The notes: a model not told the origin generated them from the sequence alone. A stretch of DNA of 64,000 bases from Candidatus Multivoradales bacterium (GCA_965223155.1 CBDCVR010000013.1:384001-448000), one strand, 5' to 3'; counted from the first letter of the stretch, positions 1,414 through 29,172 are shown. A program made the numbers and translations.

Positions 1414-3225
1414 CTAGTGGCTTCCCAAGATCCCCCGCTTCGCTCTCTCGACGGCAGTCGCGATTGGAGCGGACGCGACCTCGGCTCGCAGGATTGGGCG
1501 TAGGTGCTCCAGATAGTCGTCCAGGATGGAAGCTTCCAACGAGGCTTCGCGGATGAAGGCCGAGCGCAGGTCGGCGTCACTGAAATCGAAATGCGTCAGG
1601 ATGTCGACGAGGGCGAGGGCGAACTGTGAGGCGGCGTCGTCCCGGGTGCCGAGCCGCCAGGTCCAATCGGTCTCGGCGACGAAGTCGCCGATCAGGGTCA
1701 AGAGCGTCCGGCTGCGCCAGTTGGTGGATCGAAAGCTGCTCAAGAGCTGCTGGTAGCCGTTCTCCACGTTCTGGGAAATGTAGAAGAGCGCCACCGCCGC
1801 CACGAGCTCGTTGCGGAGCAGCGACTCGGCGTCGAGATCGCGCCACCTGTAGTAGTCGTAGGTGGTGGTCTGCCGGTTTCCGCTGCTGTCGAGATAGGAG
1901 AACTGCCTGCGGGTCACGCCCTCCCCCGCCGCGTCCCGCGCTTGGGTCCCGGCTTCGGCCATGTAGAGCCAACCGTTCCCGCTCAGATCGTCGATTCTGC
2001 GGCGCCCGACGCTGGGGGCGAAGTGAAAGCCGACGAAGTTGGCAACACCTTCTTTGAAGACCGCGTGGGAGTCGGGAAGGATCTCCCGAAAGTAGTGGGT
2101 GCCGTCGGGTCCGTAGGCGGGGCCGTAGTGCGCGGTGTCCCAACCCGTTCGATCGAGGGTGTGGACGGTCTCGTGAATCAAGGTCGCGTGCCAGTCGGGG
2201 ACGGTCCGTCCTCCCCCGCTCAGATCCTCGGCGTGGAGCTCACCCAGGACCACCTTGCCCAGCGCGCTCGAACCTCGCCCTTCGCGCCAGGCGCACGGCC
2301 ACACCCCCAGCCGTCCCGTGCCCCGCAATTCGGACCGGCAGAGCCGGTAGTGGTTCCCCGTCGCCTGGGTGAGATCCTGGGTGAAGTCGTTCACCAAGTA
2401 GAACCGCAGCCGGGGCAGACCGCCGATAGTCTGCATCAGGCGGGCGACCTCGGTGCCGACGCGTCCGGCGGTGATCTCTTCATAGGTGCGAATCAGCGTT
2501 GGACAGTCCTGGGCGCAAAGCTCGCGCAGCCGCGCGGCGCTGCCGGCCAGCCCGATGCTTCCCCAGACCCCTTCGGCGGCTCCGGAGGGGGTCGGCAGAC
2601 GGGGATCCACCAGCACGACCTCGATGGGTCCCCGCGCGCCACCGCCCGCAGACTGCGGCGAGGCCAAGGAAGCGATTCGGCTCCGCCAGTCGTCTTCGGA
2701 AAAGGCGGCTCCCGAGGCACCCTCGAGGAAGTAGCGCTCGCCCACGGCCACTGCGCTGGTTCTGGAACCCTCGCCCGTCCGGGACGGAACGACCACCGTT
2801 TGCTCCCCGAGACTCCGGACGCTGTCCCCGAGCAAGCGGCGCAGCTCGGCCGAGAGCGGGCGATCATCGACCAGGAAGACATAGTTGACGCCGGCAAGCG
2901 AGACCCGCTCGGATCCGCCGGGACCACAGGCTCCCGCTCCCAAAGCCTCCCGCGCAAGGGCCAGCCCGGTCAGATCCGCCTCGCAGAACGGGGTGGCGGT
3001 CCGGGTCGCGCCCTCGTCGCAGACCTGCCGCCCGGCCGTCAAGTCTTGGCCGCAGACCGCCGGATACCCAGCCGGAAGGTAGTAGACCGTAGTCGCGGCC
3101 TCGATCGGTGGCGCCGCGACCACGAGCGAGACAGTCACCAAGGCCCGGCCGACGAATCGCCTGGCGGCGGTCTCGGTTCCGCGGGACGTCCTCCTGCCTT
3201 CACGCCTTGCCACGAACGCTCGCAT
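1414..3225 (-). CDS. Secreted cargo-type protein 1: shared 4-Cys N-terminal domain plus HEXXH zinc metallopeptidase domain
   Basis: Signal-like N-terminus (..ALVTVSLVVAAPPIEA|ATT); TTVYYLPAGYPAVC..C..FC..C..YVFLVDD domain; TLIHETVH (HETVH at 2175-2161) and downstream EGVANF. The ATG overlaps the upstream stop (TGATG at 3227-3223). Confidence 0.8.
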   Translation of the reverse strand: MRAFVARREGRRTSRGTETAARRFVGRALVTVSLVVAAPPIEAATTVYYLPAGYPAVCGQDLTAGRQVCDEGATRTATPFCEADLTGLALAREALGAGACGPGGSERVSLAGVNYVFLVDDRPLSAELRRLLGDSVRSLGEQTVVVPSRTGEGSRTSAVAVGERYFLEGASGAAFSEDDWRSRIASLASPQSAGGGARGPIEVVLVDPRLPTPSGAAEGVWGSIGLAGSAARLRELCAQDCPTLIRTYEEITAGRVGTEVARLMQTIGGLPRLRFYLVNDFTQDLTQATGNHYRLCRSELRGTGRLGVWPCAWREGRGSSALGKVVLGELHAEDLSGGGRTVPDWHATLIHETVHTLDRTGWDTAHYGPAYGPDGTHYFREILPDSHAVFKEGVANFVGFHFAPSVGRRRIDDLSGNGWLYMAEAGTQARDAAGEGVTRRQFSYLDSSGNRQTTTYDYYRWRDLDAESLLRNELVAAVALFYISQNVENGYQQLLSSFRSTNWRSRTLLTLIGDFVAETDWTWRLGTRDDAASQFALALVDILTHFDFSDADLRSAFIREASLEASILDDYLEHLRPILRAEVASAPIATAVERAKRGILGSH

Positions 3226-4493
3226 CAGAAGGGTCGCTCGCATGAGCAACCGCGGCAGAAGGGCTCGAACTCCCGGCAGTATCGCTCGTTGAGGTCCTGC
3301 CGCAGGCGGGCTCGGTTCTCCGGGATTCGGAGCATGCGGCGTTGTCCGATCGGCATGTCGCGCCAGCGGCTGAGAGCCGCTTCGCACCCGGCGCGATTCC
3401 TCTCCATGAGCTCCGGAGCGCCACAACCTTGCGGGTGTCGCGGTCGGTAGATGGGCAGGAGCTGATCGTTCAGCCTCGCCGGGCCGGTAAGCCATGTCAT
3501 GGTGACTCCGTAGCCCTCGAGATAGGCCATGTGAAGCATGCCTCGCCGCGCGCCTTCTTCGCCGGTCGCCGGCTCCGGCGGGGTCCCCGCGCCCCGTACC
3601 ATGCCCTCGCCGGTATCCTGGATGACCGGCTCCGGATCGGGTCGCTCCGCGGGAGGCACCCGCTCCTCGTCATCGTCGAAATCCACCGTCTCACCCAGGG
3701 TGAAGCCGAGTCGATCGATCCGGTCGTCGCGATCGGGTTGGCGATACAAGACGCCCCGCAGCGGCACCGTGCCCGCGGACGACTCTCCATGAATGCGGCG
3801 AAGGCTGGCCTCGACCCTGTCGATGAGCTCGCGCATCCGGGCCCTTCCGTCGCTCCGGCACAGCATGATCGGGCACAGGGCGTCTTCGACGGTTCGGCGG
3901 AAGGTCGCGTAGTCCGAGTGGTACGGCACGTCCAGCTCCTCGACATCGACCTCCAGATCCAAGAGGCTGGCGATTCGGGTGAGCCAGGCGGTCCGGTTCG
4001 GCGATCGTTCGCGGTAGAAGCGCTCGCCCACGAAGATGCCCTGGACGCGTGCCGAGGGGCCCGTCCTGGACGGCACCACCATCGGACCGGCGCCCAGGTC
4101 GCGCACCGCGTCGCCCAGCCTGCGAGTGAGCGCCGCCGACAGGGTTCGATCGTCCACCAGGAACACGTATTCGATGCCCGGGATCTGGACTCGCTCCGAC
4201 TCGGCCGGGCAGGCCGGGAGGCCCAAGGCCTCGCGTGCCAGGTCGAGGCCGGTAAGTCCCGAGCGGCAGAAGAACCGGGCACGGTTGGTGACGCCCTCTT
4301 GGCACACCGGGACCCCCCGGGAGATGTCGTAACCGCAGACCTCAGGATAGTTCTGAGGCAGGTAGTACACGGTCGTCGCGACCAGGGGACCCGACGCCCC
4401 AAGTACGGCCAGGCACGCGAAACCGAGCGTCGCGCCTAGCCTTACGGCCCCGCGAAGGGTCCGGGCCGGCAACCGTGAATCAAGATTCGGCAT
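3225..4493 (-). CDS. Secreted cargo-type protein 2: shared 4-Cys N-terminal domain plus unknown Cys-containing C-terminal region
   Basis: ATG with GAGGG upstream; signal-like TLGFACLAVLGASGPLVA; TTVYYLPQNYPEVC..YVFLVDD..VVPSRTG..VGERF..WLTRI. Confidence 0.8.
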   Translation of the reverse strand: MPNLDSRLPARTLRGAVRLGATLGFACLAVLGASGPLVATTVYYLPQNYPEVCGYDISRGVPVCQEGVTNRARFFCRSGLTGLDLAREALGLPACPAESERVQIPGIEYVFLVDDRTLSAALTRRLGDAVRDLGAGPMVVPSRTGPSARVQGIFVGERFYRERSPNRTAWLTRIASLLDLEVDVEELDVPYHSDYATFRRTVEDALCPIMLCRSDGRARMRELIDRVEASLRRIHGESSAGTVPLRGVLYRQPDRDDRIDRLGFTLGETVDFDDDEERVPPAERPDPEPVIQDTGEGMVRGAGTPPEPATGEEGARRGMLHMAYLEGYGVTMTWLTGPARLNDQLLPIYRPRHPQGCGAPELMERNRAGCEAALSRWRDMPIGQRRMLRIPENRARLRQDLNERYCREFEPFCRGCSCERPF

Positions 4494-4512: not shown

Positions 4513-6111
4513 TTAGTTGAATCCTCGGTCCGCCAGCTTCCAAGCGAGGAGACTCCGGGCCGGTATTCCCGAGATGGCTCGAAAGCGGCGGCGGGCGTCC
4601 TCGTCCTCGGGCTCCGTAAGCACCTGGTGGTTCGGACCCAGCCAGCCGCAGTAGCGGCGGTAGGCTTCCCCGTCCGCGCGCCAGCCGCCTCCCAGAAGCG
4701 GGGACCGGCTGAGCTCGGTGTAGGACGTCACGAAACAGACCCGCTTGCGGACTCCCAAGAGGAATAGGGTGGTCTTGCTCTGCGCGCCCATGTCGCTCAA
4801 GCGGTTGATGCGATCGCCGACGCGCTCGGATTCGCTCGTTGCAAGGGACGCCCGCACCAGGCTGCCCGGAGACTCATCGCGTCGCTCGAACCAGATCTCC
4901 AGGCACCCGCCGGTGCCGTCCTGCATCTGGCAGCTCGCTTCGGCTGCATTCTCAGGCGCGGAGTACTGCGCGTTGATCCAGTCCTCGTAGAGCTCTCGCT
5001 CGAGCTCCAGGGGATGCGGGGCGCGGAAACTCCGGGCCTCTTCGATCTTGGCTCGGATCTCGGTCTCGAATCCCTGGCGCAGGTCCGGCGACAGACGCGC
5101 GTATCGAGTCTGCCACTCGCGAACCAGGTCCTCGCGGCGCAGCAGACCCCGGCGCTGGGCCAGGAACCGGTTGCGCACGTCCTGGATCCACTCCCCCACC
5201 GTGCCCGAGCGGGGACCCGATCCGAAGTGACCGGTAAAGGCTTCGACAACGGGGGCGAACGTCTTGAGGTCCCGGAATTCGATCTTGGGCGCGGTGTAGT
5301 CATCGCCGCTGCCACGCGCCAGGACACTGATCTCGCCCATCGCTGGAAAGCTGCCGATGACCTTGTCCAGCATGAACCGAAACACCGTCTGTCCCAGGAC
5401 CTCCCAGAAGTCCGGGGTGAGCTCGCTCACCGACGCATGCACCATGGTGGACTCGAACTGCTCGAGCGCGCCGTCGTACATCGCCAAGCCGTCGCCCCAG
5501 TTCTGCTCGGTTTGGGAGACATAGCGCTCGATGTACTGGTTGACCTGGGCCGGGATCTCGTCCAGGAGGTGCTGCAGGAATCTGCGCTCGTCGCGAACGA
5601 TACCGACCCGTTCCAGCCACGCCGCCTGGCTGTCCCGGTCGCCGCCGACGCCGAGCTCGAACAGACGCTCGCCCACGGCGATGAAGTCGTAGCGGAACGC
5701 TAGGGCGCCGGCGCGGCCTCGGCTCGGGTAGACGAGCTCCCCCTGGCCCAGGTCCCGCAGGGCATCGCCCATCAGACGGCGCAGCTCCGGCGACGGGGAG
5801 CGGTCATCGACCAGGAAAACGAAGCGCACGCCGGACAGCGAAGCGCTCTGATCGGGCGCGCCGCAACGAGGAAGCCCAAGGGCCTGCTGGGCGAGCTTGA
5901 GACCCGGCACGTCGGCTTCGCAAAACGGCGTCGCCCGGCGGGTGGCCCCATGGATACACCACGGCTCGGAGGCGCTCAAATCCTGCCCACAGACCTCCGG
6001 GAAGCCCTGCGGCAGGTAGTAGATCGTGGTGGCCCGGCCCGGCGTAGCGGCCCCTGCCGCGAGAAGCACCAGCAACCCAGCGGCGATCTTGAATCGGGAG
6101 TTTCGGAGCAT
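4513..6111 (-). CDS. Secreted cargo-type protein 3: shared 4-Cys N-terminal domain plus helical C-terminal region
   Basis: ATG 6111 lies 2 bp after the upstream stop; signal MLRNSRFKIAAGLLVLLAAGAATPGRA; TTIYYLPQGFPEVC..FVFLVDD..VYPSRG..VGERL..WLERV. Confidence 0.8.
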   Translation of the reverse strand: MLRNSRFKIAAGLLVLLAAGAATPGRATTIYYLPQGFPEVCGQDLSASEPWCIHGATRRATPFCEADVPGLKLAQQALGLPRCGAPDQSASLSGVRFVFLVDDRSPSPELRRLMGDALRDLGQGELVYPSRGRAGALAFRYDFIAVGERLFELGVGGDRDSQAAWLERVGIVRDERRFLQHLLDEIPAQVNQYIERYVSQTEQNWGDGLAMYDGALEQFESTMVHASVSELTPDFWEVLGQTVFRFMLDKVIGSFPAMGEISVLARGSGDDYTAPKIEFRDLKTFAPVVEAFTGHFGSGPRSGTVGEWIQDVRNRFLAQRRGLLRREDLVREWQTRYARLSPDLRQGFETEIRAKIEEARSFRAPHPLELERELYEDWINAQYSAPENAAEASCQMQDGTGGCLEIWFERRDESPGSLVRASLATSESERVGDRINRLSDMGAQSKTTLFLLGVRKRVCFVTSYTELSRSPLLGGGWRADGEAYRRYCGWLGPNHQVLTEPEDEDARRRFRAISGIPARSLLAWKLADRGFN

Positions 6112-6113
6112 TT

Positions 6114-7535
6114 CTAGTCGTCCCCGTCCTGGTCCTCGGTGGTCATGGCCTCGGGATTCTCGAGATCGACTTCCCCGAGAAGCTCGAAGTGGTTCCCGCT
6201 CTTGAGCCAGCGCCAGCTCCACCAGGCCATGGCTCCGTCGGTGATCGGTGTCTCGGCGATGAGCTGGCGCATCTCCGCCTCGGTCTTCGCCCGGGCGTCG
6301 CTACACCGCCGGTTCTCGGCACAGGTGACCGGCGCACAGTGATGAGCGCCCGAAATCGGCACGACCGGGAAGTGCGTGTCCTCGCTCCAGCGCCGCACGG
6401 AGTCCGGTGGATACGCGGCAGGCGCGGTGTCGCATCGATCGTAGATCTGAGGCAGGCCGTAGTCGGCATCGATGAAGGCGGCCAAGGGAATCTGCGGGCG
6501 GCCCAGCGAGGTGACTCCAACCGAGAGGTTGCGGGGCTCGGCGAGCTCGCGAGCCGCCGTCATCAGGGCTTCCGATCGAGCCCGGTTGCGGCTGAAGTGG
6601 GCCTCGGGATCCAGAATGATCCCCGTGGCGTCGAGATGGAGCGCGCCTTCCACCAGCTCCTCGACCTGGCGGCGAATGGCGTTGCCATGCTCGGGAGCAC
6701 CGCGCCACGCGAAGATGTCGATCTCGGCCGCATGCAGGGCTTCGAGGTAGGGGCCGAGCGCTTCGATCTGATCCTCGGTCAGCGGCACATAGGTATCGCG
6801 GGGATGGTAGTGCGTGGGCCAGGCGACCCACTGGATTCCGGCCTCCCGGAGACGGGTCACGAAGTCACTCGGACTCCCGAGGAAGGCGAAGGAAGGCTCC
6901 TCACCCGCCTCGACCGCCGCCAGCACCGCCCGTGCCTCGACCCCCGTGATCGTGCGCTGGAAGAAGATCCCCTTGCCCCGGGGAATCCCAAGGCGCCAGA
7001 GATGCGCCCAGTTGGCGGCGTTGCGCACCTCGTCGATCCACGCGGCATCGGAAGGAGCCAGCGCCGCGGCGGCCTCCCCCACGACCAGCGCCCGGACCGC
7101 GTGGCCATCCACCGTGCGGGACGGAGACACAAGACGCCGGCCATCCCGGTCGCGAACGGAATCTCCCAGGAGCTCCAGCAATTCAGGGGTCGGATCCCGG
7201 TCGTCGACCAGAAACACGTAGTCGAAACCCGGCAATTCGTTGCGGCGCTCGACGCCGTCGCAGAGCTCGAGCTCCAGAGCCTCGGCCGCCGCGCGCAGCC
7301 CCGGCACGTCCTGCTCGCAGAAGGGCTCGGCCTCGGCGGTGACTCCGTCAGGGCAGGACGCCCCAGCTCCGGGCAGCTCCTGCGCGCAAGTCGATGGAAA
7401 CTCTTTGGGTACAAAGAAGATGCGAGTCCGGGCGGCCGCGGTGCCGGCCCCTCCCAGGAGGAGGAGTGTCGCCAGGGCGGCGAGGGCCCGCCTACCCGGA
7501 GAGGCTCGTCGTGGGCGAAGACTAGGAGCCTTCAT
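6114..7535 (-). CDS. Secreted cargo-type protein 4: shared 4-Cys N-terminal domain plus TIM-barrel glycoside hydrolase-like domain
   Basis: Signal RRALAALATLLLLGGAGTAAA; IFFVPKEFPSTC..YVFLVDD; C-terminal beta/alpha succession GKGIFF, GIQWVAW, IDIFAW, GIILDPE, VGVTS, LPQIY, VVPI, MAWWSW. Confidence 0.75.
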   Translation of the reverse strand: MKAPSLRPRRASPGRRALAALATLLLLGGAGTAAARTRIFFVPKEFPSTCAQELPGAGASCPDGVTAEAEPFCEQDVPGLRAAAEALELELCDGVERRNELPGFDYVFLVDDRDPTPELLELLGDSVRDRDGRRLVSPSRTVDGHAVRALVVGEAAAALAPSDAAWIDEVRNAANWAHLWRLGIPRGKGIFFQRTITGVEARAVLAAVEAGEEPSFAFLGSPSDFVTRLREAGIQWVAWPTHYHPRDTYVPLTEDQIEALGPYLEALHAAEIDIFAWRGAPEHGNAIRRQVEELVEGALHLDATGIILDPEAHFSRNRARSEALMTAARELAEPRNLSVGVTSLGRPQIPLAAFIDADYGLPQIYDRCDTAPAAYPPDSVRRWSEDTHFPVVPISGAHHCAPVTCAENRRCSDARAKTEAEMRQLIAETPITDGAMAWWSWRWLKSGNHFELLGEVDLENPEAMTTEDQDGDD

Positions 7536-8592
7536 CGTCGTAGATGGCTATCGATTCCACGGAGCCCCCCTCGGTGTTCCGCATGACCGTGACGGGAACG
7601 TAGGTCTCCTCGCCGTTGCCGACGCCGGCGTCCGAGAGCTCGCCGTGGAGTCGCCTCAGGCCGTCGCTCCGACGGGCCGCGGAGTACGCGGCCGAACGCT
7701 CGATGCCGCCGATCTCGCTGGCGAGCGCTCGTCCGACCGCATCGCGCCACCGAACGAAGCTTCGATGAAACGGCACTGGCACCTCGCGTTCCTCGAACGT
7801 GAAGCTGGAAGCCTCGGGGCTCGGTGTCGGGGTCGTCAGGCCCTCGCCGGTCTCGGTCGGTGCCTCCCGTCGCCGGTCTCCGTCACCTCCTCCCCGGCCA
7901 GGGCTAGGCACAGACAACCCACCGGCGCCCTCCGCCGGCCTCTCCGCAGAGCCGCCTCCGGCCGCAGGGGTCGAATCGCCGTCGCCGCGGTTCTCGGGCA
8001 AGGCGCCAGGACCAACGACCCGGCCCAGCTCGCCCCCCTGCGTCAACAGGCCGCGGATCCGTTCTTGCCAGGCCGAAGTCGGAATCGCACCGCCCCCTTG
8101 CCCTCCGACGCGGGACATCTGCTCCCCGACCACGAGAGTGCGCCTGGATCGGCTGAGGGTATCGGTGAAGACCCGAAACGAGGGCTCGATCATGCGCCGG
8201 CCACCCTGGGAAACGAGCGTCGGACCGAGGGCTTCCAGAAGCGCTGAGGAAGGATTCGAGTCGTCCACGAGAAGGACCAACTCGACGGTCGATTCCGCGA
8301 GAGAGACCAGAAACGGATTGGGCATGCTGTTGCCCTGACAGTCTCGAAGTCCCAAGGCACTGCGCGCCGAATCGAGACCGGAGAGGCCGAGACGGCAGAA
8401 CGCCTCGACTTGACCGGTCACCCCATCGGGACATCGCGCCCGATCCTCGGTGAGAGACCAGGCGCAGACGGCTGGAAACCGCCCGGGCACGAAGATCACG
8501 TCCACGCCGGCGACCGCCGGCAGCGGGGCGAAGACGCCCGCCAAGCCCAAGAGGCTCGCGATCACGAGCTTCCGAAGGCCGGTCCTACTCAA
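7522..8592 (-). CDS. Secreted cargo-type protein 5: shared 4-Cys N-terminal domain, Gly/Pro-rich linker, small C-terminal module
   Basis: TTG start overlaps the upstream gene by 8 bp; signal LRKLVIASLLGLAGVFAPLPAVA; VIFVPGRFPAVC..LVLLVDD..IEPS..VVGE..WQERI. Confidence 0.75.
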   Translation of the reverse strand: MSRTGLRKLVIASLLGLAGVFAPLPAVAGVDVIFVPGRFPAVCAWSLTEDRARCPDGVTGQVEAFCRLGLSGLDSARSALGLRDCQGNSMPNPFLVSLAESTVELVLLVDDSNPSSALLEALGPTLVSQGGRRMIEPSFRVFTDTLSRSRRTLVVGEQMSRVGGQGGGAIPTSAWQERIRGLLTQGGELGRVVGPGALPENRGDGDSTPAAGGGSAERPAEGAGGLSVPSPGRGGGDGDRRREAPTETGEGLTTPTPSPEASSFTFEEREVPVPFHRSFVRWRDAVGRALASEIGGIERSAAYSAARRSDGLRRLHGELSDAGVGNGEETYVPVTVMRNTEGGSVESIAIYDDEGS

Positions 8593-18731: not shown

Positions 18732-19835
18732 CTAGTAAAGCTCCCTGGGGTCCAGGCGGGCACCCGCTGGCCCATCCTCGATCCGATCGCGGAAGCGCGT
18801 CACGTCGAGCGATCCCGTCCAGGAGGCGACCCGTTGCCACGGTTCCGATTCAGTTGCGTGATCGTATTCCCGGGTCACCTGGAATTCGTAGCCGTCATCC
18901 AGCTCGACGGCGAACCGAAACCGCACCTCCTCCCGGGAGCCGGTCGGTGGCGCGAACTCGACCGCCTCGATCGGCCGGTCGCCATTGACCGCCACGGCGC
19001 GCACCTGGACCACGACCAGGCGTAGGTCTTGAGGCACGGCTCCAGCGGCAAAGTCATGACAGTAGATTTCCAGAAACGGATAGTCCGCGGGGATGCGGGT
19101 GTCCAGATCCACGATCCGGAAGCACCTGGGACAGTCCGTCGGAGCGATATCGAGCGCCAGGCTGTCTCCGCCGAGAGCCCGTTCCACGAGCTCGGGCTCG
19201 GCGCTGGTGCCGTTGGTAGTCGTACCGGCACCGAGGCTGCCCGGTCGATGCGGTACGACCTCGGCGCTCAGGGTGTAGCTCAAACTCAGAGCGAGACTGC
19301 CATCGTGCAGGGAGTCCCACAGCAAATCCGCGGTCAGCGAGTCCAGGGACACTTCATAGGTTTGCTCCGACCAGCGCTCGGGCTCGTCGTCCCAGGACCC
19401 AGAGGCGATCTCCCCGCCCGTGCCTCGCTCCGAGCCGGCATAGACGAGCGAGCTGCGGATCCCGGAGATCGGGACCGGCTCGAGTCGAACCGCTCGCCGT
19501 GCCCGCGCCTCGAGGTGTGAGCGCAGCGCTTCGACGCCGCCGGGATCGGCTTCCAGCCGCACCGAAAAGCGCAGAACCGAACGGGTCCAGAAGCGTTCGG
19601 CATCGGCCGTCGCCGTGGTCCCCTTGTAGCGAAACCGCTCGAACGCAAAGGCAGGAGCGCCGCCCTCGCGAACCAGCTCCAGCTCGGCCGGCAGGTACCA
19701 CCAGCGCAGCGAATCCTGATGATCCGGAAAGTACCGGAGGCCCTGCCCGAGGCGCACCTCGCTTGCCACTGGCCACGCTCCAGCCGCAGCTACCTGGACC
19801 ATTCCAAGCACGAAGAGCGGCAGGATCCGGATCAC
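18732..19835 (-). CDS. Short secreted scaffold-family paralog F (central region missing)
   Basis: GTGA overlap with the upstream gene; signal MIRILPLFVLGMVQVAAAGA; GLRYFPDHQD..WWYLPAELEL..GGAPAFAF..LRFSVRL matches the family N-terminus. Confidence 0.75.
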   Translation of the reverse strand: MIRILPLFVLGMVQVAAAGAWPVASEVRLGQGLRYFPDHQDSLRWWYLPAELELVREGGAPAFAFERFRYKGTTATADAERFWTRSVLRFSVRLEADPGGVEALRSHLEARARRAVRLEPVPISGIRSSLVYAGSERGTGGEIASGSWDDEPERWSEQTYEVSLDSLTADLLWDSLHDGSLALSLSYTLSAEVVPHRPGSLGAGTTTNGTSAEPELVERALGGDSLALDIAPTDCPRCFRIVDLDTRIPADYPFLEIYCHDFAAGAVPQDLRLVVVQVRAVAVNGDRPIEAVEFAPPTGSREEVRFRFAVELDDGYEFQVTREYDHATESEPWQRVASWTGSLDVTRFRDRIEDGPAGARLDPRELY

Positions 19836-21769
19836 TCGGCGAGCAGTCCCTCGATGGTTCCGGCCTGCAGGAAGACGAGCTCCGGGTTATAGCTGGACGG
19901 CGCAAGCCATTCGCTCGCAACTTCGTCATGGGCGGTATAGACGACCACCCGGTATTCGTAGATCGGTTCCTCGGCGTCGGACGGCGCGAACAAGGTCGCG
20001 ACCTCCCGAACCGACTCGGACCCTCGGCCGAACTCATAGCTCCGTTCGCTCAGGCTCGATCTCTCGGGATCGGGATCGAAGAAGCGCGAGCGTACCCGGA
20101 CGATGACCAGATCCAGCCCGTACTGCTCGAACAAGGCCTCGGTGTCGGCCACGCGGATGCGGACGTTGGTCTCCGGAATTGAGCCAACGCCGCCCCGCAG
20201 CGCGTCGAGAACGCCTTCCATCTCGGCGTCGCTGGGAGCGAGATCATAGTCGTACCAGGCGGCGACGGTTGCTCGGTCCTCGATCTGCGGAGAGATCTCC
20301 CGGTTCGAGATCGGGAGACTCTCTCCTGGAGCCACCACCGCCCCGCCAAGCGCGTAGCCTCGAAGCCGCAAGCGATTGCGCTCGCTCCGCAGGTACAGGA
20401 TGTGATTCAGGCGCACCGAGAAGGGATGCCCATTCTGGAACTCCGTCGTGGTTTCACCGGACCGCATCCAGGCCGCCCGCCCGTAGGCCAGATCATCGGC
20501 GAGGTTGAGGTTCGCGGTCACACCCAGCCTGCCCAAGTCATCGGACTCGTAGTAGACGTCGCCGCCCAGCCCCATGCGCTCGTTGGCAAGCGCCTCGACC
20601 AGGGACTGTCGCTCGGCCGAATCAACGCTCACCGAAAGAACGAACTCGCCTTCCTCATAGCTGAGCTGGGTGATCTCGGGCTCCTCCTCGACCAGGCGCC
20701 AGTTGAAGGCCGGCTCCAGGTCCGCGGTCAGGGGCCGCAGCTTCACGTCGGCAGCCGAGCCGCTGGGATTGCGATCCAGATAGGCCTCGAGCAGCTCGCG
20801 CAGGATCTCGAGGTCCCGCTGGGTCGTGCCGTCGGTCAGGGTCATGTTGACCAGGAAGTTCTTGCCCGACCCGTCGCTCGGCTTGCTGAAGAAATTCAGG
20901 TAGTAGCCTTCCTCATCGGTCCATTTCAGCGACCAGCGCTTGGGCTGGTAGTAGTAGACGCCGGAGTCCAAGTTCTGATCCTGGTAGACAATCGTGCTCA
21001 GATTCAGCAACCCCCGGACGTCCTCGAAGCCGAAGGCTTCGAGCTGGTCCACCAGGGGTTCGCTATAGAGCTGGATCTCGCGGCCGGCGCCCCGAGTGTT
21101 GAGGTCCCGGTTCTTCTCCTCGGACTCCTCCTTGGCTTCTTCGGGCGTCTTGAGCGTCACGGTGGCAACCTGGTGGGTGAACGCCCCCTGACCCACGAGG
21201 TCCGCGATGCCAAAACGGGCAAGGTTGTTCTTCTCCAAGTAGCCCTCGACCCGGTAGCGGCGGTAATCCGGCGGCAGGCTCGAGCGGCCGGTCACGTTCG
21301 GATTCGTGGTCGTGAAGTTGTCCTCGCGGGAGCGACTCCAGAAGCTGGTCAGGGGAAGCCGGTTCGAGCCCGTCTTGGTGGACAGATAGCCCTCGAGGCG
21401 GACGAACTGGTACCCGCTGCGTCCCTGTCCGGGCCGGCCGGCCCACACCGGGTTCGAGGTCGTAAAGTAGTCGCCCCGCGACGGACTCCACCATCGGTAC
21501 AGAGGTCGCGTGTCCTGCGGCTGCGCGGCATCGGGTGAGTGGATGTATCCCTCGACTCGAACGAATCGGTAGCCGTCCTTGGTCGCGCCAGAAGCTCCCT
21601 TCCAGCGCGGATCGCTGGTCGCGAAGTTGTCTCCTCGGGCATCGCTCCACCAGGAGTACACCGGAATCAGTCCTGCCTCCGCCGCGCCGGTGAAACTCAG
21701 CGCCAGGACGAGCAGGCCGGCAAACGTCCGGCTTTGAGTGCGACTTGGGCAGCAGTACATCCTCTTCAT
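19832..21769 (-). CDS. Secreted divergent scaffold-family paralog G with N-terminal triple aromatic repeat (DUF5648/beta-trefoil-like)
   Basis: ATGA overlap and GAGGAAGG RBS; signal ..TFAGLLVLALSFTGAAEA; three repeats P[VL]..[WF]WS..R.D.F.T....Y...R.EGY (about 21670-21230); then IVYQDQN..VYYYQPKRWSL resembling the family YYLP motif. Confidence 0.7.
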   Translation of the reverse strand: MKRMYCCPSRTQSRTFAGLLVLALSFTGAAEAGLIPVYSWWSDARGDNFATSDPRWKGASGATKDGYRFVRVEGYIHSPDAAQPQDTRPLYRWWSPSRGDYFTTSNPVWAGRPGQGRSGYQFVRLEGYLSTKTGSNRLPLTSFWSRSREDNFTTTNPNVTGRSSLPPDYRRYRVEGYLEKNNLARFGIADLVGQGAFTHQVATVTLKTPEEAKEESEEKNRDLNTRGAGREIQLYSEPLVDQLEAFGFEDVRGLLNLSTIVYQDQNLDSGVYYYQPKRWSLKWTDEEGYYLNFFSKPSDGSGKNFLVNMTLTDGTTQRDLEILRELLEAYLDRNPSGSAADVKLRPLTADLEPAFNWRLVEEEPEITQLSYEEGEFVLSVSVDSAERQSLVEALANERMGLGGDVYYESDDLGRLGVTANLNLADDLAYGRAAWMRSGETTTEFQNGHPFSVRLNHILYLRSERNRLRLRGYALGGAVVAPGESLPISNREISPQIEDRATVAAWYDYDLAPSDAEMEGVLDALRGGVGSIPETNVRIRVADTEALFEQYGLDLVIVRVRSRFFDPDPERSSLSERSYEFGRGSESVREVATLFAPSDAEEPIYEYRVVVYTAHDEVASEWLAPSSYNPELVFLQAGTIEGLLAE

Positions 21770-22545
21770 CCTTCCTCTTCTTGCGCCAGGATCCGGAGCA
21801 CGGCTGGTGCGCTCCGCCGGCCCTCCGCGTCCTCCACGATCACGTCCCGCACTCCAGGATTCGGGGCGAAGCCGCGGTCCAACTCGACCTCGACCAGCTC
21901 TTGGTCGATGAAGTACACCGGAAACTCGCGAAGCCCGTAGTCCGGCAACCGCGAAGTCCCGGCATGGAGATTCGCCAGAATCCAAACCTTCGAACTCTCC
22001 GAAAAGCCTTCTCCGAAGACCTCGAGGAGAAGCGCTCGGCCGGCCGGAATCGCAGCCGGCCGGATTTCCCGGATCGCCGGGCCTCCCGCGGCCGCGGTGT
22101 CAGGCTGGGTCTCCTCATCCCAGTTCCCGCCCGAGATCTCTTCCTCAGCCGGCACTGTCTCCTCCGCCCCGTCCCGGACCTCTCCGATGGTCAGAGTAAG
22201 CGCGAGTGAGCGCTCGCCGCTTGCCGCCTCGACCAGGATGGCGCGCTCCCTAGGTACTGGCGGCAGGCCCAACGGAAACTCGACAACCAGCCTCTCCGCG
22301 GAGCGTTCCGCGGGCGTCCGGCGAAGGTACCTGCCAGCCTGGCCGGCCTCGACCAAGATCACGGTGGAGCCGTCGAAGCCCGCACCGTTCAGGACCAGAG
22401 AGAAGGCCGTCCGCGCCGGAACGCTCGCGGGCTCGAGCGAAGCGAGTTCCGGACGAGCGGATTCAGTCTCAGAGCCGGAGCCGGTACCGGCGCCGGACGT
22501 CGCCACAGAAATCAGGACCGCGAGGACAAGAGCCAGTTGGCGCAT
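21766..22545 (-). CDS. Secreted protein with two IPT/TIG-like Ig domains
   Basis: Signal MRQLALVLAVLISVATSGA; repeats PELASLEPASVPA..FSLVLNGAGF and PAIREIRPAAIPA..LLLEVFGEGF separated by an acidic linker. Confidence 0.75.
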   Translation of the reverse strand: MRQLALVLAVLISVATSGAGTGSGSETESARPELASLEPASVPARTAFSLVLNGAGFDGSTVILVEAGQAGRYLRRTPAERSAERLVVEFPLGLPPVPRERAILVEAASGERSLALTLTIGEVRDGAEETVPAEEEISGGNWDEETQPDTAAAGGPAIREIRPAAIPAGRALLLEVFGEGFSESSKVWILANLHAGTSRLPDYGLREFPVYFIDQELVEVELDRGFAPNPGVRDVIVEDAEGRRSAPAVLRILAQEEEG

Positions 22546-22551
22546 CGGTTT

Positions 22552-24195
22552 CTAGCGAACCACCAGGGCCGCGAAGTTGGCATCGGACTTGGCTCCGGAG
22601 CGGTCGTGGCAGACCACCGAAGCGGTGAACCCTGAATAGCTCCAGCCGACCACCTTGCACAACCGGTTACTGCCACCCACGGCGGTAACCTGCACCGTCC
22701 CGCCCTTGCCACCACCCGAACCCAGGCCAGGCAAGCGAACCGAATAGGTACCGGCCCCGCTCCGCCGCACCTCGCCGCCCTGGCCGGTCGAGTTGTAGAG
22801 ATAGCTCGGCGATCGCAGCCGGTCGTACTCCGAAGCGACGTAGCCCAAACGGCCGAAGCCGGCCGGCCGCGAAGCGACGAGAATCTCGAAGCGGCCGTCG
22901 GAGCGGCCTCCAGCGGCGTTGAAACACTGCACACTCGCCTCGAGCCGGCTCGCGCTAGCGGTGCGCCAGCTCTGGAGCGAACAGTCGATCGCCCGGGACT
23001 CGCGCGCGGTTACCTGAACGTGAGTCGCGGCGGTGTGGCGAAAGTTGTCGAAGGTCACCTGATAGATGCCGGTGCTCGAGCGCCGGACGTCGACCGCGGC
23101 ACCGCCGGCCACGGCGGGACGGTACTCAGCCTGGGTAGCTCGATCGGCGTAGGCAAAGGCGGAACCACCCGCGGCGGAGCTGCGAACCAGGGCCGTGAAC
23201 CGGGAATCGGTTGGCACGCCTGTGGGCGCGAAGCAGTACACCATGAGGGAGGTCCCGCCGCTTGCCGGCAAGAATCCACCAGCGTTACACCGTTCCGGAC
23301 CGCTACCGTACGCGGTCACCTGACCGTGGAGGGCGGAACCCGAGAAGCGCTCGAAGGTGACTTGGTACCGTCCTGCGCCGATGCGCCGGACCTGGACGCC
23401 GCCGCGGGGATTGTAGGCGTAGGTCGCGCTCGGCCTGTAGCTCGGCTCGGACGCCTTCTCTGCCCAGACGTAGGCGTAGTTCGCCAGACTCGGAACCTCC
23501 GCCACCACTCCCCCGACCGTGCCAACGGTAGTGGTCGTCGTCGGAGGGCTCGTTGATCCGCCTCCTCCACTTCTCGAGCCCCCTCCCGAAACAGCCCCCG
23601 AAGGCGTGTCGCCGACCGGGATGGGGATCACGACGTCACTCGAGAGCCCGGTTTCGGCGCTCTCCAAGCCATCCTCTCGCGCCGGCTCGTCGTCTCCTTC
23701 GGTCAATGCAGTGCCAGCAGCGCCCCAGGCTCGGTTCTTGGTGAAGAACTTCTTCGCGAAGCTCCGGCCACCCCTCCGAAGCTTGATCTCGAAGCCAGCG
23801 CTGGTGATGGCTCCTTCCCCTTCGAAGGTCACCCGAACCAGAGTCGTGCCCGCGGACGTGGTGAGTGCGACCGCTTCGCTCGAAAACCCGTCCAGAGAGC
23901 GCAGGGACCGATCGATCGGCCGTGCCGTGAGCTGAACCTCGGTGGGGGCCTCGACCTCTTGATACCCGACCCGAAACGTCGCCTGAAAGGCATCGCCTTC
24001 CACTTCCTCGAACGACACGATCTCCTTGCTTCGGCCGAGGGCGTCTTCGAGGATGTCCCGGAGTTGGGCCTCACCCGCGCCGGGCCAGACCAAGGCGAGT
24101 GCCGCGGCAATCGCCGGGGCGAGTCGGGGAAACGACCGAGCGTGGCTCCGCCGCCCCCACCCCCAACAACTCGTGCATCGCATCTGCTTCCCCAT
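22552..24195 (-). CDS. Secreted protein: N-terminal beta domain, Gly/Thr linker, three tandem ~100-aa Cys-containing beta repeats
   Basis: GGAGG 9 nt before ATG 24195; signal ..LAPAIAAALALVWPGAGEA|Q; three repeats with VRR...G.Y.V, QVTA..C, V.C....G...D..F (about 23480-22555). Confidence 0.75.
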   Translation of the reverse strand: MGKQMRCTSCWGWGRRSHARSFPRLAPAIAAALALVWPGAGEAQLRDILEDALGRSKEIVSFEEVEGDAFQATFRVGYQEVEAPTEVQLTARPIDRSLRSLDGFSSEAVALTTSAGTTLVRVTFEGEGAITSAGFEIKLRRGGRSFAKKFFTKNRAWGAAGTALTEGDDEPAREDGLESAETGLSSDVVIPIPVGDTPSGAVSGGGSRSGGGGSTSPPTTTTTVGTVGGVVAEVPSLANYAYVWAEKASEPSYRPSATYAYNPRGGVQVRRIGAGRYQVTFERFSGSALHGQVTAYGSGPERCNAGGFLPASGGTSLMVYCFAPTGVPTDSRFTALVRSSAAGGSAFAYADRATQAEYRPAVAGGAAVDVRRSSTGIYQVTFDNFRHTAATHVQVTARESRAIDCSLQSWRTASASRLEASVQCFNAAGGRSDGRFEILVASRPAGFGRLGYVASEYDRLRSPSYLYNSTGQGGEVRRSGAGTYSVRLPGLGSGGGKGGTVQVTAVGGSNRLCKVVGWSYSGFTASVVCHDRSGAKSDANFAALVVR

Positions 24196-24285
24196 GCCAG
24201 CAGTCCTCCCCGGAATGGCCAATCCGCAGCGCACCACTCCCACGTCGCGTGCCTATGGCGTCAACACTTTGTCTCGACGCCCGAG

Positions 24286-24296
24286 ATCATATACCA
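24286..24296 (-). promoter_or_regulatory. Possible -10 element for the 14-gene operon
   Basis: TGGTATATGAT on the minus strand about 90 bp upstream of the first ATG; no clear -35. Confidence 0.25.
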
Positions 24297-24501
24297 GCCG
24301 CGAACCACGGTTCTCGCGGAACCGGAGCGCCCTTCTCGCCTCGGCACGACACTACGAAGCTGTCACCGGTCGGCGATTCGCTGGCCGCGCGGTCAGGAAA
24401 TCGCGAACCCATGGTCTGACCCCTTGCTGGGCCGCCTCAGCCCGGAGTCGAGCTGAGACTCCGCAGAGAACTCGGCGGCGAAAAAGAACTGAACTCCGAG
24501 G

Positions 24502-25293
24502 CTAGGGATTCACGTCGACATCCGTGCGATCGGGTAGCTCTTTGCGGGTCGAGGTGACCGGCACGACGACGGCTCCCGACTTGCCGATCATTCCCCACCG
24601 TCCGCCGACCACTCGGTAATGCTCGCTTTCAGGGATGGGCTCGGGTTTGCAGCCTTGGCAGACGATCGCCAAGCCGTTCTTGAAAGGGAAGGCAAAATCC
24701 CATGCTGGCGCGATCACGACTTCGAGGTCCCGGTTGACGAAACCAAAGGGTCCGTACCGCTGACCGCGGAGAACCGTACGAGCCAGCCCCTCCTCGAAAT
24801 AGTCGGGGCCATTGTCATAGATGAAGGCCCAGGCGGTTGTCCCGTCCTTCGAGATTCAGGCGACTCTCGTGAACTCGACGTGAATCGCGGCGAGTCCATA
24901 TTCGTCGAATTCAAGCTCGTCATAGAGCCATTCGGCAGGTCTGAGAGAGCCATCGCCCGTGACCCCGCCGCAGTCCTGCCATCGCTGCAACGCGTCGGCG
25001 GCGCCGCCAAGGCCCCAGACCATGCATTCGAGATTCGTCTCGCGCAGGGCCTGGTGCGACGTACAGGAGATCGAAGGCAAGATCCCGAGCACGAGCCCCA
25101 CGAGGGCTGACGGGAGCAGGTTCGCTCCGCGAAGACGTTGCTTGAAGCCCTGGATCGCGACGCGCCCGAATCCGGATCCGGGACTGGCCCCGTCCTGCAA
25201 TCGACGGTCCCCGGCAGGCAGGGTGCCGCGACGACCTTGCGGGCCTGTCGAACAGGTAGAGACTCCTGAGACAACGAACTCGGGTCGCAACAT
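24502..25293 (-). pseudogene. WG-repeat lipoprotein interrupted by an in-frame TGA at 24858-24856
   Basis: ORFs 24856..25302 and 24502..24717 are in the same frame. Manual read-through gives RVA*ISKDGTTAWAFIYDNGPDYFEEGLARTVLRGQRYGPFGFVNRDLEVVIAPAWDFAFPFKNGLAIVCQGC..GRWGMIG, a continuous WG-repeat signature. Lipobox-like LPSISC; start uncertain. Confidence 0.7.
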
Positions 25294-25428
25294 GCCCGCC
25301 ACGCCCCAGACTACCTCGACCGCCGCTTGCCCGGCCTTCGAGGGTGCATGGGCAACGTTCTGACTGAATCTTGCGCCCCGCGCCGGCCGTTCCGAGCGGC
25401 CTTCCCGGCGAGGCCCGGGCCGGAAGGC

Positions 25429-27642
25429 TCAGGCTTCGGCGCGCAAGGCGCCGTCGAGCAGCCGGGCGAGAACCCGCGGCTCGAGCGGGTGCGAGAAGAG
25501 GTAGCCCTGGACGAGATCGCAGCCGTGCTCGACCAGCACGTCCGCCTCGGCTTGCCGTTCGACACCCTCGGCGACCACTCGGACTCCGAGGCTGTGGGCC
25601 ATGGCGATGATGGCCGCGACCATCGACTCCTCGCCCTCCGGCACGTCGCAGTGGCGAACGAAGCTCTGGTCGATCTTCAGCGTATCGATCGGCAGCCGCT
25701 TGAGGTAGCTGAGCTGGGAATGGCCGGTGCCGAAGTCGTCGAGCGCGATGCGGACGCCCGCCTCACTCAGGCGCTCCAAGTTGCGGGTTCCGAGCTCGAG
25801 GTTCCGAATGAGGGCGCTTTCCGTGAGCTCGATCTCGACGTCGCCGGGCTCGAGCCCAACGGCGGCAATCTCTGCGAGAACGAAGTCCGCGAAGGTCTTC
25901 AGTTGCAGGTGTAACGCCGAGATGTTGAGGGCCACCGTGACGTCGCTACGGCCCTGCTCGTGCCAGGAGGCCGCGTGCCGGCAGGCCTGCCGGACGACTT
26001 CCTGCTCCAAGGGCACGATGAGACCCGACTCCTCGGCCAAGGGGATGAACTCGGCCGGCGAAAGGATCTCGCCGGAGCTGCGTATCCGAGCCAACGCCTC
26101 CGCGGCGACGATCTCGTCCCGAGACAGATCGAACTGGGGCTGGAAGTGCACGAGAACGTCGCCGTCTTCAAGAGCTCGGCGCAGGTCGGACTCCAGGACC
26201 ATCCTGCCGACCGCGGCATCGGTCATCTGGGGCTCGAAGAACTGCACCCGGTTCCGGCCCAGCTCCTTGGCACGGTACATGGCGAGATCGGCGTGCTTGG
26301 TGAGCGTGCCGGCATCCTCGCCGTGCTCGGGAAAGATGCAGACCCCGATGCTGGCGCTGATGTAGAGCTCGCGGCCTTGAACGTCGAGCGGCGCGGAAAA
26401 GGACTCGAGGAGCCTCTCGGCCAAGCCCAGCGCCGCCTCGTGCGAAGGCAGGCCGTCCTGGAGAATCACGAACTCATCGCCCCCCAGACGCGCCACGGCG
26501 TCTCCGGCGCGCACCTGCTTCTGGATACGCTGGGCCACCGCTCGCAGCAAGAGGTCGCCGGTGGCGTGTCCCAGCGTGTCGTTGATGGTCTTGAACCGAT
26601 CCAGGTCCACGAACAGAAGGCCCAGCAGGCGCGACTCGTTGCGGGCGCGGGCCAGGGCGGACGCCAAGGTCTGGTTGAACTGGACGCGATTCGGCAGGCC
26701 GGTCAGGTCGTCGAAGTAGGCGTGGTAGCGAATTGCTTCCTCGGCCCGGCGCTGCTCGGTGATGTCCCGGAAACTCCACACCCGGCCGATCGTCCGGCCG
26801 CCGATGCGCTGCGGCTGCGAGAAGCGCTCGAAGACCCGGCCGTCCTTGAACTCCAATGTGTCCGAGCTCGAGGCCTCGGGGCTGGCGTAGAGCTCGCGCA
26901 CCTTGGCGACGAACGCATCGGGATCCACGAGCTGCGACAGCACGCTAGCGATAGCGGCCTCATCGTCTCGCGCCTCCAGGTGCTCGACCGGTACGTTCCA
27001 CATCTCCCGGAAGCGGCTGTTGAACGCCGAGATGCGTCCGGCCTCGTCGACCACCAGCATGCCGTCCGCGGTCGAGTCGAGGGTCGCTTGCAGCAGCGAA
27101 AGCGATTCTTCGAGCTCCCGCTCGGCGTGCCTGCGCTCACTGATGTTGCGAATCACCGCCAGCCGATCGCCGCCGACCAGAGGCACGATCCTGGCCTCGT
27201 ACGAATGCTCGTCCGGATCCCCGAAGGAGTATTCGACTCTCGCCGTGGCCTGGCCGGCCTCCAACTCCTCCAAGGCTTCGCGGAACGCCGCGGCAACTTC
27301 CGGAATCGGAATATCGTGCACCTTCTTGCCGATGAGCTCCGCGCGGCCGGCGTAGAGGTCGACGTCGTCGGATGCCGTGCAGTCGCGAATGGTGCCGGCG
27401 GCGTCGAGATGCAGAAACAGATCGGGGAACGCCTCGACGATACCCCGGAGCTTCGAGTTGGTCTCGAGGAGCTCCCGCGAGCTCAGCTCCAGGGCTCGCT
27501 CGAGCATCCGGCGGTCACTGTCGGCCTCCCGGTAGGCCTCATCGACCGCCTCGACGAGTTTGTTCCAGGGCGCCGGAATCTCGAACCCCTTGCCATAGAG
27601 CCGCCGAAGCTGGCGTGCCAGAAGGCTGTGGAGCTCGGACAT
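25429..27642 (-). CDS. PAS-PAS-GGDEF-EAL diguanylate cyclase/phosphodiesterase
   Basis: DLDRFKTINDTLGH, RLGGDEF, AAEALAR, DDFGTGHS, VVAEGVE, QGYLFS; two PAS-like segments. Confidence 0.95.
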   Translation of the reverse strand: MSELHSLLARQLRRLYGKGFEIPAPWNKLVEAVDEAYREADSDRRMLERALELSSRELLETNSKLRGIVEAFPDLFLHLDAAGTIRDCTASDDVDLYAGRAELIGKKVHDIPIPEVAAAFREALEELEAGQATARVEYSFGDPDEHSYEARIVPLVGGDRLAVIRNISERRHAERELEESLSLLQATLDSTADGMLVVDEAGRISAFNSRFREMWNVPVEHLEARDDEAAIASVLSQLVDPDAFVAKVRELYASPEASSSDTLEFKDGRVFERFSQPQRIGGRTIGRVWSFRDITEQRRAEEAIRYHAYFDDLTGLPNRVQFNQTLASALARARNESRLLGLLFVDLDRFKTINDTLGHATGDLLLRAVAQRIQKQVRAGDAVARLGGDEFVILQDGLPSHEAALGLAERLLESFSAPLDVQGRELYISASIGVCIFPEHGEDAGTLTKHADLAMYRAKELGRNRVQFFEPQMTDAAVGRMVLESDLRRALEDGDVLVHFQPQFDLSRDEIVAAEALARIRSSGEILSPAEFIPLAEESGLIVPLEQEVVRQACRHAASWHEQGRSDVTVALNISALHLQLKTFADFVLAEIAAVGLEPGDVEIELTESALIRNLELGTRNLERLSEAGVRIALDDFGTGHSQLSYLKRLPIDTLKIDQSFVRHCDVPEGEESMVAAIIAMAHSLGVRVVAEGVERQAEADVLVEHGCDLVQGYLFSHPLEPRVLARLLDGALRAEA

Positions 27643-27648
27643 GCCTCG

Positions 27649-28782: not shown

Positions 28783-29172
28783 TTCGGCTCGCCTCCACCG
28801 GCGCGATCGGGCGCGCCTGGTTGAATACCGCGACCGAAGTGCAGAAAAGATGCCCGAAATATCGACAGTTTGCCATATTGGGATGAGCCCTGCGGACATT
28901 GCCTGTTTCGCTCCTTTCGCGGCGAGCTGCCGCCTCCCGGGCCCTTCGAACAGGGAAATCCGCCTGGGACCGACTCCCCGAATCCGCAAGGTCGGCGACC
29001 GCGGCTTGGATCGAGGCGGGCCGAGCCCCGATCATCTCGATCAACAGCCCAATCGGTGATGCAACGCGACCTCAGCTGGGACAATGCGGCAAATATTGGC
29101 GGTGGCCTGCCGCAGGACGTACCTCGCCCGGCCTCACAGAAACCCTGCATTCCGAACCTTGGGACACGAAGA

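Follow-up and report, generated by a model that had tools for sequence, protein, structure and literature searches.

The window analysed here is a stretch of 64,000 nucleotides (nt) of DNA from Candidatus Multivoradales bacterium (GCA_965223155.1, CBDCVR010000013.1:384001-448000; GC about 66%), and our subject is a row of seven diverged paralogous genes on its minus strand, called A to G, at 8585-21769. We found that this array is old, non-redundant and co-inherited. We give about even chances to the reading that the seven genes are non-interchangeable parts of one Sec-exported multi-protein assembly, carried as a mobile, self-contained cassette.

Paralogy of the seven genes

All 10 pairs among A to E were matched by BLASTP, with identities of 23-34% and E values from 1e-9 to 4e-43. 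The alignments were nearly full length in 6 of the 10 pairs, and in the 4 pairs that include A they were split into two blocks flanking an insert in that protein. Thus A and C matched in blocks of 34% and 30% identity (E 2e-30 and 1e-32), and B and E matched over 568 amino acids (aa) with 26% identity (E 4e-43). F and G are remote relatives of A to E, and profile comparison was needed to detect them. By BLASTP F showed a weak match to the family at its N-terminus only (A-F, E 4e-4), and the hidden Markov model (HMM) of the family recognised it with an E value of 2e-10; hhalign joined the F-family alignment to a 67-member alignment of the family with a probability of 98.9% (E 3e-17) over the first 200 columns or so. 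G was missed by the family HMM. The G family aligned with the F family over about 300 columns, which take in both the aromatic motif near the N-terminus and the C-terminal domain (hhalign, 96.5%, E 7e-10), and with the A-E profile in the last immunoglobulin (Ig)-like domain only (77.8%, E 2e-5). The preliminary description of this region, which was made from the sequence, had claimed seven diverged paralogs in a row; BLASTP and profile searches bore this out, with the qualification that G is only a remote member. The collinear motifs listed there are real alignment columns and match the positions that are invariant in a 23-sequence alignment including A to E, which are Y63, P65, G137, G173, A175, P176, G180, A184, W475, G480, P500 and P599 in the numbering of C.

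The seven genes are as follows, from the first gene of the cassette to the last:

G, 19832-21769, minus strand: first cassette gene, Y family; the conserved Y body is the C-terminal part of about 425 aa, with a YYYQP motif and a terminal Ig-like domain, and the N-terminal extension (aa about 36-158) holds three DUF5648-type repeats
F, 18732-19835, minus strand: 367 aa; consists of the first half of the N-domain and a single Ig-like domain at the C-terminus
E, 16794-18719, minus strand: full-length, clade III; extra copy whose position is unmatched in the other loci examined
D, 14843-16744, minus strand: full-length, clade II
C, 13038-14846, minus strand: full-length, clade I (Ic); signal peptide, N-domain (aa about 35-395) and FN3-like domains at 397-500 and 501-600
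B, 10845-13037, minus strand: full-length, clade III; N-terminal extension of about 90-145 aa
A, 8585-10801, minus strand: full-length, clade I (Ia); insert at aa 308-466

The insert of A (window positions about 9400-9880) has about 160 aa, first charged and Glu/Arg-rich and then Gly/Ser/Thr-rich. It lies between the core of the N-domain and the last strands of that domain, the site where relatives carry tetratricopeptide (TPR) repeats, and may be a degenerate or replaced interaction module.

The same families in fixed orders in several phyla

When named species genomes were scanned with aligned orthologs of C, 34 public loci were obtained; a scan with C alone found no relative. The loci came from Nitrotoga, Arenicella, Marinicellaceae, Wenzhouxiangellaceae, many Desulfobacterales, Desulfatiglans, Campylobacterales and a metagenome-assembled genome (MAG) of Acidobacteria, and they span five or more phyla. 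The family occurs in Pseudomonadota, Thermodesulfobacteriota, Campylobacterota and Acidobacteriota, and one MAG named 'Deltaproteobacteria' is Myxococcota according to NCBI. Genes were classified by local HMM scans and BLAST, and the starts of open reading frames (ORFs) in these other loci are first-start calls. The same five families made up all loci, namely Y (the family of G), F and the full-length clades I, II and III.

The three clades were obtained in a tree of 65 full-length members (IQ-TREE, 'quick' mode, with long-branch warnings for A, C and E of the window) with supports of 100, 100 and 99 in the Shimodaira-Hasegawa-like approximate likelihood ratio test (SH-aLRT); clade I contains A and C, clade II contains D, and clade III contains B and E. 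The general pattern is a Y gene of about 500 aa, then an F-like gene of 320-420 aa (323-417 aa), then the full-length genes, and the F-like gene follows Y in every locus that extends that far. Delta-type loci have the order Y-F-I-II-III with a TPR insert in the clade I gene, and gamma-type loci have Y-F-II-I-III-I. L029 is arranged as Y-F-II-I-III, and in the Acidobacteria locus, which follows the gamma order, the last gene carries TPR repeats. TPR repeats are inserted in clade I at a fixed position, as in delta-type loci and in L052. The window has Y(G)-F-III(E)-II(D)-I(C)-III(B)-I(A), a gamma-type array that contains E in addition, and G036, a genome of the same taxonomic order, has Y-F-II-I-III-I. 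The assignment of G to the Y family was based on BLASTP of its aa 220-645, which matched the gene directly upstream of the F-like gene in L052 (33%, E 1e-54), in L054 (E 1e-20) and in delta-type loci (E 1e-8 to 5e-14).

A, B, C and D each grouped with four position-matched orthologs (two from Nitrotoga, one each from Arenicella and Marinicellaceae; that is, from Gallionellaceae, Arenicellaceae and Marinicellaceae) with SH-aLRT of 99-100. The sister group of D consisted of the position-1 genes from four gamma-type loci (support 99), and D was 49% identical to its Nitrotoga ortholog; B was sister to the position-3 genes (support 100) with 52% identity to Nitrotoga. E has no positional counterpart and grouped with L054_p3 and L052_p3 on long branches; it was the best match of the clade III gene of G036 (39%). 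The nearest relatives of E are clade III genes from G036, Wenzhouxiangellaceae and Acidobacteria, and those of A to D belong to the Nitrotoga/Arenicella set; the window array may therefore combine parts of two cassette lineages.

All five families stood in order in 24 of the 34 public loci. Of the remaining 10, 8 lie where the contig breaks off within the array or next to it, and in 2 (L032 and L041) no ORF was called at the place where tblastn still finds the clade I match. Separate orthologous clades with a conserved order, which the preliminary description had expected of an ordered set, were thus found, both in the position-matched orthologs of A to D and in the few fixed orders kept by the 34 loci. 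Copy number and order varying at random with lineage-specific duplication would be the refuting pattern; the opposite was seen, with no lineage-specific burst. This argues for non-redundant parts that function together. The copies are also too diverged for recent amplification, as had been stated before, because they fall in clades older than the split of several phyla.

Family genes meet at 123 junctions in the 34 loci; 95 of these were tight (overlap or at most 30 nt), and 24 were 4-nt overlaps. The junctions of the window from G to A are -4, 12, 49, -4, 0 and 43 nt, which means that the pairs G/F and D/C share 4 nt each and that B follows C without a gap. Such packing would be typical of co-translated partners.

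Predicted beta-sandwich build of the core proteins

A to F had no match in Pfam, NCBIfam, PADLOC or PHROGs. PADLOC gave 0 matches for the 14 proteins encoded in the gene row described below; PHROGs gave only matches with E of 0.01 or above, and NCBIfam a single match (E 0.2). When 67 family members were searched against Pfam, no meaningful recurrent family was obtained; the commonest match was found in 7 of the 67, with a best E value of 0.008. The family profile against PDB sequences gave nothing below E 0.28. The family itself is large: the search with C returned 782 representative clusters at 50% identity with E of 1e-3 or below, 230 of them at 1e-30 or below, and the nearest clusters in the ESM Atlas were 'hypothetical protein' sets of 2122, 568 and 98 members. 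No usable named match to the N-domain was found in the ESM Atlas. No prior description of the cassette was found in the literature by searches limited to generic words, which is weak evidence.

An AlphaFold2 model of C made with a 67-row alignment had a predicted local distance difference test score (pLDDT) of 89.1 and a predicted TM-score of 0.74. In this model an N-domain of about 360 residues, consisting of a beta-sandwich core with a large alpha/beta insert, is followed by two FN3-like domains; the regions 397-500 and 501-600 match FN3/Ig-like sandwiches (VIA-align Z 6-7). Foldseek with the whole model found Ig-domain arrays (TM about 0.1). The N-domain folded alone (aa 35-395) had a pLDDT of 86.4 and gave no PDB match with Foldseek at E of 1e-3 or below. 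Its best VIA-align match was a 116-residue sandwich of SgrA (Z 7.8-7.9), in which about 106 residues were aligned across positions 28-355, so that only a split beta-sandwich core was recognised; the alpha/beta insert of about 200 residues had no counterpart among the matches listed. The sole significant structural neighbour of the N-domain was an uncharacterised protein of Medusavirus stheno (BFVD A0A7S7YF07, E 1.4e-6, 268 columns, TM 0.31). The 67-member alignment contained no invariant column, its near-invariant columns being mostly G, P, A and S, and no family-wide invariant polar residues that would hint at an enzyme were seen. The three modelled beta-sandwich domains, taken together with this, give the protein a structural rather than a catalytic look.

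Comparison with MACPF/CDC, aerolysin, anthrax protective antigen (PA) and gasdermin folds, which had been put forward as possible relatives, gave nothing above noise among the PDB matches listed, either for the whole model or for the N-domain (Foldseek, VIA-align). Iota toxin Ib (9jsg) aligned with the N-domain over 115 residues (Z 5.1; root-mean-square deviation, rmsd, 5.5) and ties with many unrelated beta-sandwich proteins, and domain 4 of pneumolysin, which aligned with the last FN3-like domain (Z 6.2), was the only MACPF/CDC-related match among those listed. The Pfam models of MACPF, thiol-cytolysin and gasdermin matched neither A to G (E of 1 or below) nor the 67 family members, and no long amphipathic hairpin was evident in C by eye. 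A complex prediction was run for the N-domains of C (aa 35-395) and D (aa 28-400), each with its ortholog alignment; its score of 0.00 in both runs, obtained without controls, counts neither for nor against binding.

The gene row and its second family

The array is part of an unbroken row of 14 co-directional minus-strand genes running from 24195 to 1414, none of which has a firm database name. The other genes of the row are the following:

U2, 22552-24195, minus strand: putative exported repeat protein, 6 nt from U1; four repeats of about 100 aa by eye
U1, 21766-22545, minus strand: putative exported repeat protein directly upstream, with a 4-nt overlap with G; two IPT-like repeats by eye
H, 7522-8592, minus strand: first paralog of the second family (fam2); low-complexity C-terminus
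I, 6114-7535, minus strand: fam2 paralog; distinct C-terminal domain that has no Pfam match
J, 4513-6111, minus strand: fam2 paralog; distinct C-terminal domain; a J-like C-terminus also occurs after the G036 array
K, 3225-4493, minus strand: fam2 paralog; Cys-rich C-terminus
L, 1414-3225, minus strand: fam2 paralog of 603 aa, a length as in P0205; HETVH (HExxH-type) motif in the C-terminal part

The seven genes occupy about 13 kb, and the cassette with fam2, U1 and U2 about 23 kb. A weak consensus scan found no terminator-like site on the minus strand in 7000-25500. Signal-peptide-like N-termini were read by eye from the translations of all 12 proteins A to L, no lipobox Cys was seen after these signal sequences, and A to G end them in Ala-rich cleavage-type sites; judging from these N-terminal sequences, A to L are probably exported. 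U1 and U2 are possibly the first genes of the operon; they had no Pfam match, and BLAST did not match them to the X genes that lie upstream in other loci. About 1.2 kb upstream of U2 lie genes for a PAS-GGDEF-EAL protein and a FIST-domain protein (25429-29031, minus strand), which could be cyclic di-GMP regulators of the row. Contig C8 of G000 (9572 bp; L002, L004, L006, L007) carries a 99% identical partial row with the end of H and then A, B, C and D, and is probably a strain variant or assembly duplicate and not a second locus. Among the sequencing runs listed, four from one study contain the DNA, and none with RNA was found.

H to L have a common N-terminal module of about 150 aa (BLASTP, 32-56% identity, E 4e-13 to 1e-41); H matched I, J, K and L at 32-39% (E 4e-13 to 2e-17), and K and L were 56% identical (E 1e-41). 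Conserved Cys residues and a VFLVDD strand characterise the module; beyond it, the C-termini show no relationship to each other. Sequence searches of the PDB with L and I yielded nothing useful. The homolog search for fam2, made by region, reached only 4 proteins. Fam2 genes follow the array only in gamma-type loci, with 1-3 per locus, and their C-termini in these relatives contain tyrosinase domains (L023, L025) or CxxCH motifs (by alignment).

The aromatic motif of the main family also stands in 4 of the 5 fam2 proteins, right after the predicted signal sequence (TTVYYLP, for instance). A match to the pattern [FYWIV][YFW][YF][LIVQ]P was present in 11 cassette proteins out of 12; the roughly 5,730 remaining ORFs of the genome contain 20 proteins with such a match. 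The exact string YYLP has 11 genomic occurrences, and the cassette together with its duplicate contig accounts for 10 of these. Because paralogs inherit a motif by descent, the sharing amounts to two independent occurrences. The common motif is suggestive and not a proof.

Putative glycan-binding add-ons and distribution

The DUF5648 domain (PF18885) was found in G at aa 36-158 with an E value of 1.8e-5 and 25.4 bits (cut-off 25), and its three internal repeats are visible. According to a preprint, DUF5648 is a three-bladed propeller, constitutes the C-terminal domain of the O-antigen-targeting toxins BSAP-2/-3 and also occurs in GH70 enzymes, and glycan recognition was inferred by its authors (bioRxiv 10.1101/2025.01.06.631476). 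An NPCBM-like C-terminus is often encoded by the gene that precedes Y in delta-type loci; among 17 sequences (15 upstream X proteins plus U1 and U2), NPCBM matches were obtained in 7, the best with E 3e-5, below or near the cut-off.

None of 4 genomes from the same genus carried the cassette and neither did any of 24 from the family; it was present in 3 of 16 further genomes of the order. Searching 300 other sampled genomes of the phylum with a clade II profile gave 2 carriers. Flanking genes were different in each of 10 scanned loci and provided no lead to a function, and transposase fragments stood beside one of these loci. The cassette behaves as a rare, mobile, self-contained island. One branch of the superfamily has members of 700-1000 aa that carry no signal peptide and stand in rows of 4 to 9 or more, as in L057 (Pararhizobium qamdonense plasmid p2, 1694-14466), G026 C11 (L018-L019) and G037 (L021-L022). 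Genes for subtilases (Peptidase_S8) of about 1000 aa adjoin these rows in G026 and G037, and in the cultured Pararhizobium strain all signal-less members are annotated as 'hypothetical protein'.

Discussion

We favour one extracytoplasmic assembly because the paralogs are old, non-redundant, co-inherited, tightly co-encoded and apparently exported, and because of the beta-sandwich build, the lack of conserved catalytic residues, the TPR inserts and the glycan-binding add-ons; physical association, subunit roles and fam2 recruitment are what we infer from these. The ancestral set would have been Y, a short F and the clades I, II and III, each of the latter with an N-domain and two FN3-like domains, in a fixed order. 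In the gamma-type form clade I would have been duplicated into C and A, and the window would have added E as a second clade III gene. The core subunits may join by way of their beta-sandwich domains to form a hetero-oligomer or a short heteropolymer, located in the periplasm or at the cell surface. Clades I, II and III would be the body of the assembly, and F, with its half N-domain and single Ig-like domain, would serve as adaptor or cap. Y would be the targeting part, and glycan anchoring may be provided by lineage-specific modules, here the DUF5648 propeller; in delta-type loci the neighbouring gene with the NPCBM-like C-terminus may take the role of this module. The insert-bearing clade I subunit, with TPR repeats elsewhere and a disordered insert in A, may recruit fam2 proteins through their common N-terminal module, which would bring in variable enzyme domains, namely tyrosinase and CxxCH modules in relatives and the HExxH protein here. 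A fixed place for each subunit in a ring, pore or filament, as proposed in the preliminary description, would be one possible form of the assembly, and the comparison with complement C6-C9 or chaperonin paralogs is an analogy only.

Several observations weigh against such an assembly. Conserved order and co-inheritance also fit proteins that act in series and do not touch each other. No fusion between clades was found among longer proteins of 1055-3010 aa, where all 4 matches were TPR insertions, which is weak evidence, and the number of core genes varies, with 3 in delta-type loci, 4 in gamma-type loci, 5 in the window and 4 to 9 or more in distant branches. The DUF5648 match in G is the only domain match among A to G and lies 0.4 bits above the Pfam threshold. 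Profile comparison found no similarity between fam2 and the main family (probabilities 0.7% and 0.5%), so the motif that they share may be chance or merely a common beta-strand. Export is not general to the superfamily, since one branch has no signal peptides.

The same evidence can be read as that of co-regulated but physically independent exported binders or adhesins, each with its own ligand and all serving one process, and we consider this unlikely. Tandem beta-sandwiches are common in adhesins, the best whole-model matches were adhesin and Ig-array proteins, and the best N-domain match was SgrA; copy number that differs by cassette type and is larger in distant branches, and the failure to find inter-clade fusions, would also fit. 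However, independent binders are usually gained and lost by lineage, whereas here the clades are kept 1:1:1 or 1:2:1 in a fixed order from Acidobacteriota to Campylobacterota, all five families are present in every locus complete enough to judge, and the frequent 4-nt overlaps suggest matched synthesis. That the proteins are enzymes of one extracytoplasmic pathway, acting alongside fam2 oxidases and proteases and each catalysing a consecutive or alternative reaction on a glycan or phenolic polymer, appears highly improbable. The tyrosinase domains in fam2 neighbours of relatives, the recurrent glycan-binding modules of the cassette and the alpha/beta insert of the N-domain would suit it, but the 67 members contain neither an invariant column nor a catalytic-type constellation, no Pfam enzyme family recurs at E of 1 or below (the commonest match being the one in 7 of 67, best E 0.008), and structure matches are limited to the beta-sandwich cores.

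A multi-component secreted toxin, in which G binds a glycan on the surface of a target cell by its DUF5648 propeller, the core paralogs assemble in order into a membrane-active oligomer and fam2 proteins are delivered or co-acting effectors, would be a special case of the assembly and is decidedly unlikely in our view; it corresponds to the pore of the preliminary description. The rare and patchy distribution of the cassette, its variable flanks and the transposase fragments at one locus are as usual for weapon cassettes, the fam2 layout has a constant N-terminus and a variable C-terminus, and signal-less relatives adjoin large subtilases, a layout known from protease-activated pore formers. 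DUF5648, present in G, is the C-terminal domain of the pore-forming antibacterial proteins BSAP-2/-3 (bioRxiv 10.1101/2025.01.06.631476). But DUF5648 was found only in the Y protein of the window, and Pfam gave no match to MACPF/CDC, aerolysin, PA, leukocidin, ClyA or gasdermin. No such fold was among the structure matches listed, where the best toxin entry, iota Ib, was within noise, and by eye C had no evident long amphipathic hairpin. The tyrosinase and CxxCH C-termini of fam2 elsewhere are untypical of toxin domains, and no immunity-like small genes were noticed.

In their logic, the nearest known systems to the proposed assembly are heteropolymeric paralog pili and multi-component pore formers. 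Like the type V pili, and loosely the chaperone-usher pili, the cassette has diverged paralogous beta-sandwich subunits in adjacent genes of conserved order, as well as long, short and add-on-bearing members; in the type V pili of Bacteroidota (FimA-E, Mfa1-5) each subunit is described as having a fixed place as shaft, anchor/terminator or accessory tip (PMC8512630). Unlike type V pili, the cassette proteins have no lipobox Cys and no Pfam FimA/Mfa-type pilin domain, and unlike chaperone-usher pili there is no usher or chaperone Pfam family in the 14-gene row or the flanking genes. The cassette subunits are also set apart from pili by their length of 600-740 aa and a 360-aa N-domain without solved counterpart.

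Complement C6-C9 and the bi- and tripartite bacterial toxins likewise consist of paralogs acting in a set order. The cassette is different from them in having no sequence match and no listed structural match to MACPF, leukocidin, ClyA-type or aerolysin-type folds. Constant modules on different enzymes, encoded beside multi-domain beta-sandwich proteins, are the principle of the cohesin-dockerin scaffolds of cellulosomes, and by analogy fam2 may follow the same logic, but there was no Pfam cohesin or dockerin match and the constant module of fam2 is N-terminal and contains Cys. With BSAP toxins the cassette shares the DUF5648 module, as in G (bioRxiv 10.1101/2025.01.06.631476).

The best whole-model VIA-align match was a TIE adhesin of Bacillus anthracis (6fwv, Z 7.4, 249 residues aligned). 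TIE proteins are described as surface adhesins of Gram-positive bacteria with thioester, isopeptide and ester domains (PMC6194298). In both, an alpha/beta-decorated domain is followed by Ig-like domains, but the rmsd of 12.6 A is in the noise range, the hosts of the cassette are diderm and no sortase signal was seen. A thioester/TIE identity was dropped because there is no Cys or Gln among the near-invariant columns of the 67 sequences.

A more far-reaching form of the proposed assembly, which we offer tentatively and think rather doubtful, is an undescribed exported multi-subunit machine of diderms, with ancient paralogs, a new N-domain fold, swappable glycan docking, and changeable enzymes whose common N-terminal docking module starts with the YYLP-type strand of the subunits; the signal-less relatives linked to subtilases would then be a cytoplasmic version.

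The family has at least 782 clusters (50% identity) and no name, domain model or solved structure of its main domain, and its gene arrangement is of a kind that normally marks a multi-subunit apparatus. Because the cassette is compact and has no known secretion genes of its own, it is suitable for heterologous expression. The variable enzyme partners (tyrosinase, haem-motif, zincin-like) hint at a surface or matrix chemistry of ecological interest. If the parts assemble, the cassette would add a new exported apparatus to a short list from diderm bacteria, and it would be a natural system for learning how duplicated subunits acquire fixed places.

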